NCBI GenBank assembly: GCA_964016885.1
Contig: OZ024745.1
Span: 117,800,001 to 117,864,000, forward strand
Direction of reading: 5' to 3'
From: Eledone cirrhosa
Taxonomy: Eukaryota
Length of the DNA stretch: 64,000 nucleotides
Below, in pieces: positions 397 through 54,805 of the stretch (positions within the stretch are counted from its first letter, which is position 1; each line of letters starts with the position of its first letter). The notes under the pieces are model-generated. The model saw nothing but the letters and a program-made list of their open reading frames with translations. It had not been told where the DNA came from and searched no databases. The position numbers were made by a program, and so were the translations under genes.

Positions 397-463
397 TCTG
401 TTATGTACATTTCAGAAACGTTAGGCAAAGATTATGTAAGTCTACCATTTATCATCAAACAGA
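397..463 (-). ncRNA. Minimal type-I hammerhead ribozyme motif (U3 variant)
   Basis: Minus strand reads TCTGT-TTGATGA-[imperfect stem II]-GAA-ATGTACAT-A-ACAGA. Stem I pairs, helix III is palindromic, triplet is AUA. Lies between TA repeats. Confidence 0.6.
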
Positions 464-614
464 GGTTAATAAAAATATATATGATATACTGACTATGGGG
501 CACAAGATGTTAGTTGTCCGAAATTCGATCAGCACGCACACACACACGTATATATATATGTATAAATGTATATATATATATATATATATATATATATGTA
601 TATATATATATATA

Positions 615-923
615 CAAGTTAATATAAATTAATATATAATAAACCACAAATACCATCATATAAGTGTTTGTATTGTAAATGACTAAGTTAGCTAGATTGA
701 AAAATACGGAACAGGTTTGATTTTGAAATTTAAATTTGTCTAAGTACCACGGCCATTTGCCAATATCGTTTATTTTTATTGATTTATTATTTTAAATCGA
801 GACAGGCAAACTGTATTATTATAATTAGTATTTTTTAATCTAGCTAACTTAGTCATTTACAATACAAACACTTATATGATGGTATTTGTGTTTTATCATA
901 TACATTAATTTATATTAACTTGT
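615..923. repeat. Inverted repeat with ~95-bp arms next to (TA)n (Penelope-like pseudo-LTR remnant)
   Basis: 615-707 is the near-perfect reverse complement of 828-923. The spacer holds a half-hammerhead GAGACAGGCAAACTGTA. Confidence 0.65.
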
Positions 924-1004
924 ATTACACGGCTCAGAAATACTTCTTTCTTTGAGCTATTTCATTGTAAAGGACTGCTTGAGTTTAGAACTCATTATTC
1001 TTAG

Positions 1005-2672
1005 TATATATGTATATGTATATGTATATATATGTATATGTATATATATATATATATGTATATTTATATATGTATATATATATGTATATATATATGTATA
1101 TATATATATATAGGTATATATATATATGTATATATATATATAGGTATATATATATATATATGTATATATATATATATAGGTATATATATATATATGTATA
1201 TATATATATATAGGTATATATATATATGTATATATATATATATATATATGTATATATATATATTATATATATTATATATATGTATATAGGGCGGTGAATT
1301 GACAGTATCGGTAGAGGGTTGGACGCCATACTTTCTAGCATAGTTACGTCCCTTTATGGTCTGAGTTCAAATCCCGCCGAGGTTAACTTTGCCTTTCATC
1401 CTTACGGGGTCGATAAAATAAAGTACCAGTAATGCACTGGGTAATTGCTGGCCTTGTGCCAAAAGTAGAAACAATTATATATATGTATATATATGTATAT
1501 TATATGTATATATATATATATATATATATATATGTTATATATATATATATATATGCATATATGTTATATATATATATATATATATATATATATATATGCA
1601 TATATGTTATATATATATATATATATGCATATATGTTATATATATATATATATTATATATATATATATATGCATATATGCTATATTTATATATATATATA
1701 TATATATGCATATATGTTATATATATATATATATATATATATATATATGCATATATGTTATATATATATATATATATATATGCATATATGTTATATATAT
1801 ATATATATATATATATATATATATATATATATATTATATATATATATATGCATATATGTTATATATATACATATATATTATATATATATATATATGCATA
1901 TATGTTATATATATATATATATTATATATATATATATGTATATATTATATATATGTATATATTATATATATGTATATATTATATATATGTATATATTATA
2001 TATATGTATATATTATATATATGTATATATTATATATATGTATATATTATATATATGTATATATTATATATATATATATATATATTATATATATATATAT
2101 ATGTATATATTATATATATATATATTATATATATATATATTATATATATTTATATATATTATATATATATTTATATATATTATATATATATATATATGCA
2201 TATATATTATATATATGTATATGTATTATATATATATATATGTATACACACACTTATATATATATATACGTATATATATTATATATATATATGTATTATA
2301 TATATATGTATACACACACTTATATATATATATATACGTATATATATTATATATATATATGTATTATATATATATGTATACACACACTTATATATATATA
2401 TACGTATATATATTATATATATATATATATATATGTATTATATATATATATGTATACACACACTTATATATATACGTATATATATTATATATATATATAT
2501 ATATATATATATATGTATTATATATATATATATACACACACTTATATATATATATATATACGTATATATATTATATATATATATATGTATTATATATATA
2601 TGTATACACACACACACATATATATATATATATGTACATATATATATGTATATATATTATCTATATATATAA
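1005..2672. repeat. Compound (TA)n/TATG microsatellite interrupted by a SINE
   Basis: Direct inspection. Source of the YI-repeat pseudo-ORFs. Confidence 0.95.
1289..1477 (+). mobile_element. tRNA-derived SINE family A (about 35-40 full or partial copies in the window)
   Basis: A-box-like TG(G/A)CAGTATCGGTAGA, B-box GAGTTCAAATCCC, central GCCTTTCATCCTTACGGGGTCGATAAAATAAAGTACCAG, tail GGCCTTGTGCCAAAAGTAGAAACAATTA. Confidence 0.9.
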
Positions 2673-3067
2673 AACTGAGGATGTCTGTCTGTGTGCGTGT
2701 TTCTGTGTGTGTGTGTGTGTGTGTGTGTGTGTGTGTGTGTGTGTGTGTGTATGAGTTTCAATCCCTAAAACTCGAGAAGTACCTAACAAATTTTTTGCAA
2801 ACTTTACATGTGTATTACTTATGTAGGGCCCGCATTAGGTGAAAAACTGTTACTTAAATATAAGTATGCATACGTAGATACATATATGTATACAGACGTA
2901 CAGTAGTATGTATATATATATACATACATGCACACACATATATATGTACGTATGGAATTACCGAGCATTTATTATAATGCTCGGTTTGTTTGTAAACAAA
3001 CATCCCGAATTAAGCCGTACAGTGTTTAGCCACCATCGTTGCCCGTTTGTTTAACACTGACAAAGGA

Positions 3068-51484: not shown

Positions 51485-51621
51485 CCAGGGAGTGTAACCC
51501 TAGGTTCACCGAGGTGAACACTCGATGTTTAGGTTCACGTCAGTGGCGAGGTGTAGAGTTAGACAGTGTAATATAATAATACAAGGACCGAATGGCTACT
51601 CCTTCATTGTGTTTATTGGTT

Positions 51622-51696
51622 GCTGACGCGCGTTTCGCTACTGATCAGCTCAAGGTTTGATCTAGCGCGACTATGGAATCAATATCTCGTCGGACC
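51622..51696 (-). ncRNA. Hammerhead motif (C4 variant) inside an inverted repeat
   Basis: CCGACGA-[~50 nt]-GAA-ACGCGCGT-C-AGC. The flanks 51578-51620 and 51710-51751 are inverted repeats. Confidence 0.55.
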
Positions 51697-52877
51697 TCTG
51701 TGGTAGTACCACAGTAAACGTAATGAAGGAGTAACCATTCGTTCTTGTATTATATATATATATATATATATATATATATATATATATATATATATATATA
51801 TATATATGTATATATGTATATGTATGTATATATGTATATATGTATATATGTATATGTATGTATATATATATATGTATGTATATATGTATATGTATGTATA
51901 TATGTATATGTATGTATATATGTATATGTATGTATATATGTATATGTATATATATATATATAAGTGTATATGTATGTATATATATATATATGTAAGTGTA
52001 TATGTATGTATATATATATATATGTAAGTGTATATGTATGTATATATATATATATGTAAGTGTATATGTATGTATATATATATATATGTAAGTGTATATG
52101 TATGTATATATATATATATAAGTGTATATGTATGTATATATATATATATGTAAGTGTATATGTATGTATATATATATATATATATATATATAAGTGTATA
52201 TGTATGTATATATATATATATGTAAGCGTATATGTATATATATATCTATATATGTAAGTGTATATGTATGTATATATATATATATATGTAAGTATATATG
52301 TATGTATATATATATATATATATAAGTATATATATTTATATAATATGTGTGTATAAGTAGTTATATACGACGAAATACATACATATACAAATAGATTCAG
52401 AAAAAACAAACAAACAATATGCGAAAAGACAATTCAAGAAACACATGCCGAGTTATTTTCCTCGTTGATACTTTAGTCAATTCATGTCTGTTTAGAGAAG
52501 GATTGATGATGAAATGCACGTACTGCTTGTCTATCACGCCCATTCGATATTGATCCGCCTGTGATGTGACCCGATTTCAGTACATGACACCAAACTAAAC
52601 ACACTCATACACGCCTGCAGAAACAACCACGGGCGTATGCACGCACGCGCGCGCACACACACATACACACACACTCACACTCACACACACACTCACACAC
52701 ATACACCTCTATAACTTCTCTTATTAAGGCAAATATGTGCACGAGAGTGAGAGAGATATTAAGCATACGATAACTGATACACTTTGGTTCAAACTGCATT
52801 CGTTGCATAACACTGGTTTCTTTTTGATGAAGTGTGAAGAGGTCATATTGATAAGGATTTGAAAGGAAGATAGGAAC

Positions 52878-53465
52878 AGGTTTGAAAGGGGGGGGGAGTA
52901 GACTTGAATGGGGAGAGAGAGGAGCAGGCTTGAGAGAGGAGTAGGTTTGAAAGGGGGGGGTTGAAAGGGGGGAGGGAGAAGTAGACTTGAATGGGGAGAG
53001 AGAGGAGCAGGCTTGAGAGAGGAGTAGGTTTGAAAGGGGGGGGGGTTGAAGGGGGGGAGGGAGAAGTAGACTTGAATGGGGAGAGAGAGGAGCAGGCTTG
53101 AGAGAGGAGTAGGTTTGAAGGGGGGGGGGGGTTGAAAGGGGGGAGGGAGAAGTAGACTTGAATGGGGAGAGAGAGGAGCAGGCTTGAGAGAGGAGTAGGT
53201 TTGAAAGGGGGGGGTTGAAGGGGGGGAGTAGACTTGAATGGGGAGAGAGGAGCAGGATTGAGAGAGGAGTAGGTTTGAAAGGGGGGGGGGGTTGAAAGGG
53301 GGGAGGGAGAAGTAGACTTGAATGGGGAGAGAGAGGAGCAGGCTTGAGAGAGGAGTAGGTTTGAAAGGGGGGGGGGGTTGAAGGGGGGGAGTAGACTTGA
53401 ATGGGGAGAGAGGAGCAGGCTTGAGAGAGGAGTAGGTTTGAAAGGGGGGGGTGAAAGGGGGGAGT
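52878..53465. repeat. G-rich minisatellite, 76-86-bp unit, about 7 copies
   Basis: Recurrent GTAGACTTGAATGGGGAGAGAGAGGAGCAGGCTTGAGAGAGGAGTAGGTTTGAAA followed by G-runs. Confidence 0.92.
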
Positions 53466-54498
53466 TGTGTCCTTGAGCAAGACACTTTATATCACGTTAC
53501 TCTGTTCACTCAGCTGGCAAAAAATGAGTTGTACCTGTAGTTCGAATGGCCAGGCTTGTCACATTCTGTGTCACGCTGAATCTCCATGAGAACTACGTTA
53601 AGTATACACGTGTCTATGGAATTCTCAAATGTTCAATGTTTGTTTCTTCTAAAGGATTTAAATTTTCTGTTTATTCTGTTATTATTATATGAAGAGGGAG
53701 GAAGGGGTGGATTTGTAGAATCGTTAGATCCACGAACATTCATATGGGAAAGGGTCGATACAATAAAGTACCAATAAAGCACTGGAATCGATTTAATCGA
53801 CTTTCCCCTTCCCCAAAATTGTTGGACTTGTGCCTAAATCAGAAACCATTATTAAGGACGGTGCACTGGCAGAATCGGTAGAGTGTCAGACAAAATGCTT
53901 TGCAACGTTTAGCTACGACGTTTTACGTTCTGAATTCAAATTCAACCGAGATTAGCTTTGCCTTTCATCCTTACAGGGTAGATAAAGTACCAGTAACGCT
54001 GGGTCCACCTATCACTCTAGGGCCTTTTCTTAAAAGGTAGATCCCTGGCAGTATTAGCGGACATGAATATTGGTTTATTGTAGCCCTTATTTCTGTGAGC
54101 TTAGGGCGATGGATTGGCAGTATCGGTAGATGGTCAAACATCATACTTTGCAGCATAGTTACAGCCTTTATGACCTGAGTTTGAATCCCGCCGAGGTTAA
54201 CTTTTCCTTTCATCCTTACGAGATATACAGTTGTCCTCCGGTATTCGCGGGTGTTACACTCCTAGAACCACTCAGGAAGAATGAAAAACCGCGAATATTG
54301 GACGTGGTATAACATAAAATATAATAAAAAAAGAGGGAGCGTTTTATGCGAAGAGGCGTTCAATAGGCCGGCAAATACAGTATATTGTTATTAATAATTT
54401 AGCGTTAGTATATATATATTCGGATCAATCTGTCGAGACGCCCGGAGCTGGGCTGTCAGGGTACTGACTCTTTTCCTATATATATATATATATATATA

Positions 54499-54805
54499 TA
54501 TATGAAATATAAGAATCAAAGAACTGTTCAAAACATTATTGTGCTTACAGCTGTTTCCTCCAAACCGAGGTTTGGATTCTTCGGAGCAATTTATTAATGC
54601 ATGGACAGTTATATGACCTCCTTTTCAGCCAAGAGACATACCGATACATATGCACATGTATCGGTATGTCTCTTGGCTGAAAAGGAGGTCATATAACTGT
54701 CCATGCATTAATAAATTGCTCCGAAGAACCCAAACCTCGGTTTGGAGGAAACAGCTGTAAGCACAATAATGTTTTGAACAGTTCTTTGATTCTTATATTT
54801 CATAT
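54499..54805. repeat. Near-perfect hairpin palindrome (~150-bp arms, 6-nt loop) carrying two hammerheads
   Basis: Loop ATGCAC at 54650-54655. One mismatch seen. Starts at (TA)n. Confidence 0.95.
54717..54763 (+). ncRNA. Minimal hammerhead (C4 core variant), with a mirror copy at 54542-54588 (-)
   Basis: TGCT-CCGAAGA-A(C/T)CCAAACC-TC-GGTTTGGAG-GAA-ACAGCTGT-A-AGCA. Confidence 0.72.

Follow-up and report, generated by a model that had tools for sequence, protein, structure and literature searches.

Type-I hammerhead motifs with a palindromic helix III in eight repeat families of Eledone cirrhosa

Why should ten hammerhead motifs scattered over one 64,000-nucleotide (nt) stretch of the Eledone cirrhosa genome (assembly GCA_964016885.1, contig OZ024745.1, positions 117,800,001–117,864,000; hereafter the window) each carry a self-complementary word as helix III, with no real loop? 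A sequence-only reading of the window had suggested that they cleave as dimers, each palindrome restricting pairing to its own family. Our analysis makes it very probable that these are type-I hammerheads of eight families whose palindromic helix III pairs two same-sense copies into an RNA-cutting double hammerhead; three of the families form the 3′ termini of Penelope-like elements (PLEs) that carry Hydra-clade motifs. The dimer design draws support from covariation at positions pairable only in a dimer, a G–U intermediate in one lineage and a predicted homodimer gain of 11–18 kcal/mol. The window itself is 33% GC, rich in TA microsatellites (which dominate a repeat search of it) and devoid of a credible long open reading frame (ORF); the assembly measures 3.0 Gb.

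Ten palindromes in hammerhead motifs

All ten reported palindromes exist. Each begins with A15.1, the final A of a GAAA, and has H17 after it, and all are helix III of type-I hammerhead motifs belonging to eight dispersed repeat families. The pattern of GAA, an 8-nt palindrome and H turns up nine times in the window, whereas 200 dinucleotide shuffles average 1.3 and never exceed 5; eight of the nine are motifs from the sequence-only reading. That reading had counted seven distinct palindromes; seven words are indeed found, but eight families use them, since families 23264 and 25871 (reported at 23248 and 25762) share ACAATTGT. The reported positions mark the left edge of the whole motif, in stem I, and not the palindrome; 25762 lies 112 nt from its palindrome because of a stem II span of 97 nt.

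Searching the genome with eight query stretches gave between 46 and 2890 first-look candidates, figures that should not be read as copy numbers. Every query matches a dispersed family, and each family has a core of hammerhead type together with both stem I and stem II. Family alignments show C3–A9 (or the covariant U3–A8), G12–A13–A14, A15.1–U16.1 and H17 in all eight families. The core is CTGAYGA in families 413, 5793/3083, 23264 and 25871, carries U4>C in families 10808, 51636 and 54557/54748, and is of the U3–A8 type in family 48972. Counting the U4>C family variants as intact, eight of the ten window copies have an undamaged core, those at 413 and 10808 being decayed. Stem I has 3–7 base pairs (bp) in intact copies and contains the open end; stem II has 4–11 bp at its base and spans 12–20 nt in four families and 38, 50–60, 78 and 97 nt in the other four. 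A strict CTGANGA-N4-40-GAAA pattern recovers just two of the ten motifs, because the remaining eight have U4>C or U3–A8 cores, a long stem II or decay.

The copy at 397–463 (minus strand; ATGTACAT at 403–410, minus) comes from the old family 413; its stem II spans 38 nt, its site is AUA and its core, TTGATGA, reflects a C3>U decay of the CTGATGA found in most relatives. Family 5793/3083, a 430-nt tandem, retrozyme-like family with core CTGACGA, helix III ACTAGT and site GUA, is represented at 3068–3110 (minus; palindrome 3075–3080, minus) and, inverted relative to this, by an intact motif with a 6-bp stem I at 5766–5808 (plus; palindrome 5796–5801, plus). The motif at 10793–10839 (minus; ACGATCGT at 10798–10805, minus; site GUU) has decayed to CCTATGG from a family core that is mostly CCGATGA. 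Two motifs have CTGATGA cores and a long stem II: the one at 23246–23356 (minus; ACAATTGT at 23254–23261, minus; site GUA), with a 78-nt stem II, sits at the 3′ end of a Hydra-type PLE family, and the one at 25762–25887 (plus; ACAATTGT at 25874–25881, plus; site GUU), with a branched 97-nt stem II, is the single window copy of a young family (99% identical).

The U3–A8 core TTGAGAA occurs at 48956–48995 (minus; ACGTACGT at 48962–48969, minus; site GUA), in a family whose relatives have a GIY-YIG endonuclease upstream. At 51622–51696 (minus; ACGCGCGT at 51626–51633, minus; site GUC) the core is CCGACGA and stem II spans 50 nt (60 in most relatives); stem I of this copy is broken, down to 1 bp. 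The last two motifs, with core CCGAAGA and site GUA, belong to a young Hydra-type PLE and occupy the arms of a near-perfect inverted repeat (about 54498–54806): the left arm holds 54542–54588 (minus; ACAGCTGT at 54547–54554, minus) and the right arm 54717–54763 (plus; ACAGCTGT at 54751–54758, plus), the latter identical to the motif in the pseudo-long terminal repeat (pLTR) of a full-length copy, L186. Two earlier candidates, a core CTGATCA for the 51636 copy and a wrong coordinate at 25762, were dropped after the family alignments.

Complementarity at dimer-only positions

We sampled 100 evenly spaced 10-kb stretches of the genome (1 Mb; L194–L293), scanning with a descriptor blind to helix III content. 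The descriptor hit 85 times, at 82 cores, where five shuffles averaged 4.6 hits, an excess of about 18-fold. Cores with a 15.2–16.2 pair number 58 per Mb, or roughly 170,000 genome-wide by rough extrapolation. Since an earlier cluster set contained motifs chosen in the sequence-only reading, helix III was retested on the sample alone, using a slightly relaxed descriptor and random-sample hits only, with nothing dropped. Of the resulting 26 clusters, 16 have even segments of 4–8 nt (10 being perfect palindromes), 7 have odd segments and 3 are of other kinds.

Dimer-only positions are those that, if paired inside a single molecule, would leave a loop shorter than 3 nt. Across the 16 even clusters, 18 of 25 such pairs are Watson–Crick, 5 are G–U and 2 are mismatches, against 7.1 Watson–Crick pairs expected by permutation (p about 1e-5). 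Excluding the clusters that contain motifs of the sequence-only reading leaves 12 Watson–Crick, 4 G–U and 2 mismatched pairs of 18, with 4.7 Watson–Crick expected (p 4e-4; because the clusters are partly related, the pairs are not wholly independent in either test and the p values err on the optimistic side). All four Watson–Crick centre pairs occur among the clusters.

The sample also widens the range of forms. Stem II spans 45–97 nt in 6 of the 26 clusters, with differing sequences and closing helices of 8–11 bp, and insertions of 50–100 nt in stem II hide 8 of 61 sampled hits from usual searches. The U3–A8 core occurs in 10 of the 61 and U at position 17 in 19.

A G–U step in one lineage

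The lineage of family 54748 offers a graded series of its helix III word. CAATTG is found in 4 distant copies (73–77% identical to the young copy), CAGTTG in 13 intermediate ones (89–96%) and CAGCTG in 25 young copies (93–100%), and the word changes are accompanied by linked changes in the flanks. CAGCTG is nested within CAGTTG even when the helix III columns are removed (support 91/77 and 95/86), in a tree whose root is weak. Read in this order, the sequences suggest that the centre pair went from A–U to G–C via a G–U intermediate, its adjacent bases being pairable only across two molecules.

Proposed pairing as a double hammerhead

In a nearest-neighbour model, the swapped homodimer is predicted to be 11–18 kcal/mol more stable than two monomer folds in all eight families (undamaged relatives stand in for the three decayed copies, and the model ignores concentration and tertiary contacts). 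Monomer helix III hairpins cost +2.4 to +6.0 kcal/mol. PLE hammerheads with a diminished stem III reportedly cleave as dimers, to go by the title of a paper by Lunse, Weinberg and Breaker (RNA Biol 14:1499).

We infer a mechanism from the published model and from folding energies. A single copy would be unable to close helix III, which would amount to 1–2 bp enclosing a loop of 4 nt. When one transcript carries two copies, whether in both pLTRs of a complete element or in adjacent tandem units, these could swap partners: helix III would become a 6–8-bp intermolecular duplex, and the stem I 5′ strand of each copy would pair with the 3′ strand of the other. Both NUH sites would then be cut, releasing a unit-length RNA. 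The palindromes of different families likely differ because the word drifts by compensatory steps through G–U pairs, and separation between families would be a by-product of divergence in helix III and stem I.

Several points weigh against this pairing scheme, beyond the optimistic p values and the weakly rooted tree. In unconstrained minimum free energy (MFE) folds, none of the eight window motifs, taken singly, displays the complete hammerhead junction; only the 25871 motif is more stable than its shuffles (z −3.7), and the other seven do not stand out. About a quarter of the sampled clusters (7 of 26) have odd, non-palindromic segments, and the GAAC family forms no stable self-duplex (+2.4 kcal/mol); the dimer rule is thus not universal in this genome. 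The dimer activity published for comparable motifs is low, and host factors may be needed (PMC4209133). A PLE ORF is tied to only three of the eight families (48972, 23264 and 54748); the link was looked for and not found in families 413, 10808, 51636, 5793 and 25871. Finally, Pfam and the PDB do not name the L186 ORF, the PDB profile giving a weak match to a retron reverse transcriptase (RT; E 0.028).

Alternatives to a dimer

The first alternative is that the motifs cleave as monomers through a weak helix III of 1–2 bp, aided by a long stem II or by proteins, the palindrome being incidental. A 6-nt segment can indeed form an A–U and a C–G pair with a tetraloop, and odd-loop families are present in this genome. 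Moreover, although axolotl hammerheads depend on dimers, most invertebrate retrozyme hammerheads are efficient as monomers (PMC7229834), which keeps this explanation alive for some families. Monomer cleavage, however, gives no reason for complementarity at the centre of the loop, where 15 of 16 pairs are Watson–Crick or G–U, and it must pay for the unfavourable hairpins given above. For the families considered together we regard it as unlikely.

A second alternative concerns why the words differ, namely that each palindrome is a selected family barcode that prevents cross-cleavage of co-resident elements. The words were compared in a cluster set from which 3 of 31 clusters were dropped as low-complexity, to which two families missed by the descriptor were added and in which one modal word was fixed. 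Fourteen different words occur among 16 perfect-palindrome clusters, and helix III is fully complementary in only 4 of the 171 pairs that can be drawn from 19 self-compatible clusters. In a crude model, all 21 equal-length heterodimers of the eight window families are predicted to be 1.3–33 kcal/mol less stable than the homodimer mean, and none of 56 cross-family combinations closes both helix III and the swapped stem I.

Set against this, CAATTG is common to three clusters, and the pairs with identical words (3 observed, 2.5 expected under uniform drawing) are as frequent as uniform drawing predicts; there is therefore no over-dispersion and no sign of selection for distinct words. Words also vary inside one family, as the 54748 lineage demonstrates. 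Three of the four complementary pairs are the CAATTG pairs; in the remaining one, stem I closes on a single side. The CAATTG families are separated by stem I rather than helix III, because stem I is also swapped in the double hammerhead and reaches 0–2 bp across these families. Pairing in cis on one transcript, furthermore, needs no barcode. A selected barcode hence seems quite improbable to us. The proposal that the palindrome limits pairing to its own family holds in so far as the families are predicted to be insulated; what insulates them is helix III together with stem I, and not the palindrome alone.

A more far-reaching version, which we consider unlikely, would have about 100,000–200,000 hammerheads in dozens of families use the helix III word and stem I as a selected two-part address. 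Scattered copies would dimerize and cleave in trans with members of their own family alone, and the RNA of a parent element could be cut by its non-coding derivatives. Under this version, a branched stem II of up to about 100 nt would mark a distinct dimeric class missed by standard descriptors.

The last alternative, chance palindromes beside GAAA in AT-rich repeat DNA with no ribozymes involved, is extremely improbable: palindromic words are frequent in the window (ACTAGT occurs 87 times), one GAAACAATTGT at 42735 has no core, and an Rfam scan of the window has no hammerhead among the best 150 of 351 matches (all microRNA models, none at gathering score, with microsatellites dominating), yet all eight families conserve the core along with both stems, hammerheads exceed shuffles as described above and the motifs sit at PLE 3′ ends.

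Host elements and copy arrangement

The palindromic double hammerhead, our preferred reading, requires two same-sense copies on one RNA, and one host element provides them. L186 (family 54748) is a full-length element with a pLTR at 2465–3220, an ORF at 3227–5722 interrupted by one natural stop and a second pLTR at 6671–7426. The pLTRs are 756 nt long and 99.7% identical, placing two same-sense motifs 4206 nt apart; an inverted copy lies upstream (5′). Between the pLTRs, the single ORF runs from RT to a GIY-YIG endonuclease at its C terminus. Its protein, for which 604 relatives were found, contains YRDD, DKT, RWR, CxCX5C (CNCRANRTC), CxxC (CNLC) and CxH (CQH).

ORFs also lie upstream of the 23264 and 48972 motifs. 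GIY-YIG scores above the Pfam cut-off in L064 and L007, CxCX5C recurs in L059 and L156, and DKT in L151. In family 48972 an endonuclease or PLE ORF is found upstream at 13 of 25 loci; in family 23264 a PLE ORF is found at 2 of 20 loci by a 700-nt rule, and L187, L188 and L193, where the endonuclease lies upstream, come in addition. In families 10808, 23264 and 413, homology ends soon after the motif and extends upstream to a variable degree, as in 5′-truncated insertions.

Two families are arranged differently. In family 5793, units of about 430 nt that each contain a type-I hammerhead are strung into arrays (17 units in L189), and no PLE protein match was obtained at any of 25 loci. Family 25871 occurs as direct same-sense pairs of about 1 kb at 9 of 19 loci, with no ORF between the copies; among the matches listed for this family in public runs there was no RNA run, and four were contig runs of unstated kind. 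In L189 (1230–9501; G000:C2:203.497–203.505 Mb), a Hydra-type endonuclease remnant is followed by 400 nt with a TA tract and then at least 17 hammerhead units of 430 nt. The array may have originated as a retrozyme from the end of a PLE, or it may have been inserted independently.

Same-sense motif pairs outside the window are thus seen in families 54748 (L186), 5793 (L189) and 25871; within 1.5 kb, none was seen for families 413, 10808, 23264 and 48972. Genome-wide, 122 of 176 whole-motif loci are alone within 1.5 kb; a partner was present in inverted orientation at 41 loci and in the same sense at 15, with some pairs counted from both sides. Within the window, the same-sense pairing that the sequence-only reading called for is absent: 3068/5766 and 54542/54717 are inverted pairs and the other copies are single, much as across the genome. 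Being single or inverted, the window copies cannot dimerize in cis, and they are probably inert, 5′-truncated insertions. Inverted 5′ copies are a known PLE feature (PMC8557442).

Near-perfect fold-back duplications surround hammerhead-bearing ends at 25100–25400, 46340–46550 and 54498–54806; they are expected from inverted 5′ PLE copies and would give double-stranded RNA if transcribed. A broken GIY-YIG endonuclease remnant at 24144–24699 (minus) belongs to another PLE type, with a CxxC linker: it is matched by a GIY-YIG piece in L181 (E 9e-8) and not by the ORF of the 23264 family. Adjoining a 25871-family pair, an ORF at L171:2802–3185 (minus) matches the RIG-I C-terminal domain (E 8e-19).

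Other features of the window

At least four further hammerhead sites in the window, absent from the sequence-only reading, have a non-palindromic helix III. They comprise an inverted pair at 46340–46520 (46471 plus and 46390 minus) with the odd segment CCACTGG, a GAAC-family motif at 48440–48491 (minus; site 48489, minus), a motif at 25286 (minus) with CCTTGAG and one at 10265 (minus) whose helix III, CAGAATCTG, is not a perfect palindrome.

Elsewhere, an open frame at 43450–43746 (minus) encodes C2H2 zinc fingers (Pfam zf-C2H2, E 1.3e-13) and is possibly an exon of a host zinc-finger gene. Starting near 33610, ACTAGT returns at 46-nt intervals, which suggests a minisatellite array. Two almost identical direct copies, each longer than 1 kb and accompanied by short inverted pieces, cover about 54970–56260 and 56420–57900. 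Weak Pfam matches mark a mobile-element piece at 12129–13466 (minus; zf-RVT at 12494–12811), LINE-like RT text at the window start (1–276, minus) and a transposase-like helix-turn-helix at 22402–22871.

Comparison with known systems

The palindromic dimer design is already published and the feature described here is of a known kind, so the gain is modest. What the genome adds is within-genome comparative support, from centre covariation and the G–U intermediate, for the dimer model, whose basis so far is a small number of slow in vitro assays. It also offers at least eight natural families in which cross-family pairing can be examined. The long stem II forms (up to 97 nt) are a small addition. 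In literature on hammerheads in Penelope elements, cephalopods, long helix II and stem III or heterodimers, we found no report of these families, no barcode test and no long stem II forms; Lunse et al. and supplement file 1 of PMC4209133 may already contain long stem II forms or mixing tests. The 'long helix II' of PMC13725137 is 6 bp long and occurs in viruses.

The closest counterparts are the minimal PLE pLTR hammerheads of Cervera and de la Pena (2014; PMC4209133), with a palindromic 15.2–16.2 and loop 3, among which a single Schistosoma mansoni motif does not cleave and dimers and trimers cleave at a low level. Likenesses include type I topology, CUGANGA with an optional extra base, the U3–A8 covariation (there in schistosome PLEs), the palindromic 15.2–16.2 and loop 3, frequent U at position 17 of their alignment, numerous families within a genome, and mostly single truncated copies with some opposite-strand pairs 100–700 bp apart. 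The Eledone motifs differ in having helix III segments of mostly 4–8 nt (2–4 in theirs), stem II spans of 38–97 nt in four of eight window families (7–8 bp in theirs), a 10.1–11.1 pair that is often U–U or A–G in place of G–C, and, in three families, U4>C cores. Two reviews (PMC6765202, PMC6466107) likewise describe PLE hammerheads with a short palindromic stem III, arranged in tandem and cleaving as dimers, the last being a prediction here.

Judged by motifs and element layout against the published description, L186 resembles the Hydra clade of C-terminal EN+ (endonuclease-bearing) PLEs (Craig et al. 2021, PMC8557442). It shares with that clade RW[K/R], DKT, the CxCX5C linker, CxxC and CxH in the endonuclease, a hammerhead in the pLTR, a partial tandem with an inverted 5′ copy and a (TA)n neighbourhood, and departs from it in having RWR instead of RWK and a unit of 4.2 kb as opposed to under 3 kb. 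Family 5793, with non-coding tandem units each bearing a type-I hammerhead, resembles the non-LTR (long terminal repeat) retrozymes (PMC7229834; bioRxiv 10.64898/2026.07.22.740005), its 430-nt unit slightly exceeding the 170–400 nt published for these, whereas the 1-kb pairs of family 25871 are unlike the long arrays of non-LTR retrozymes.

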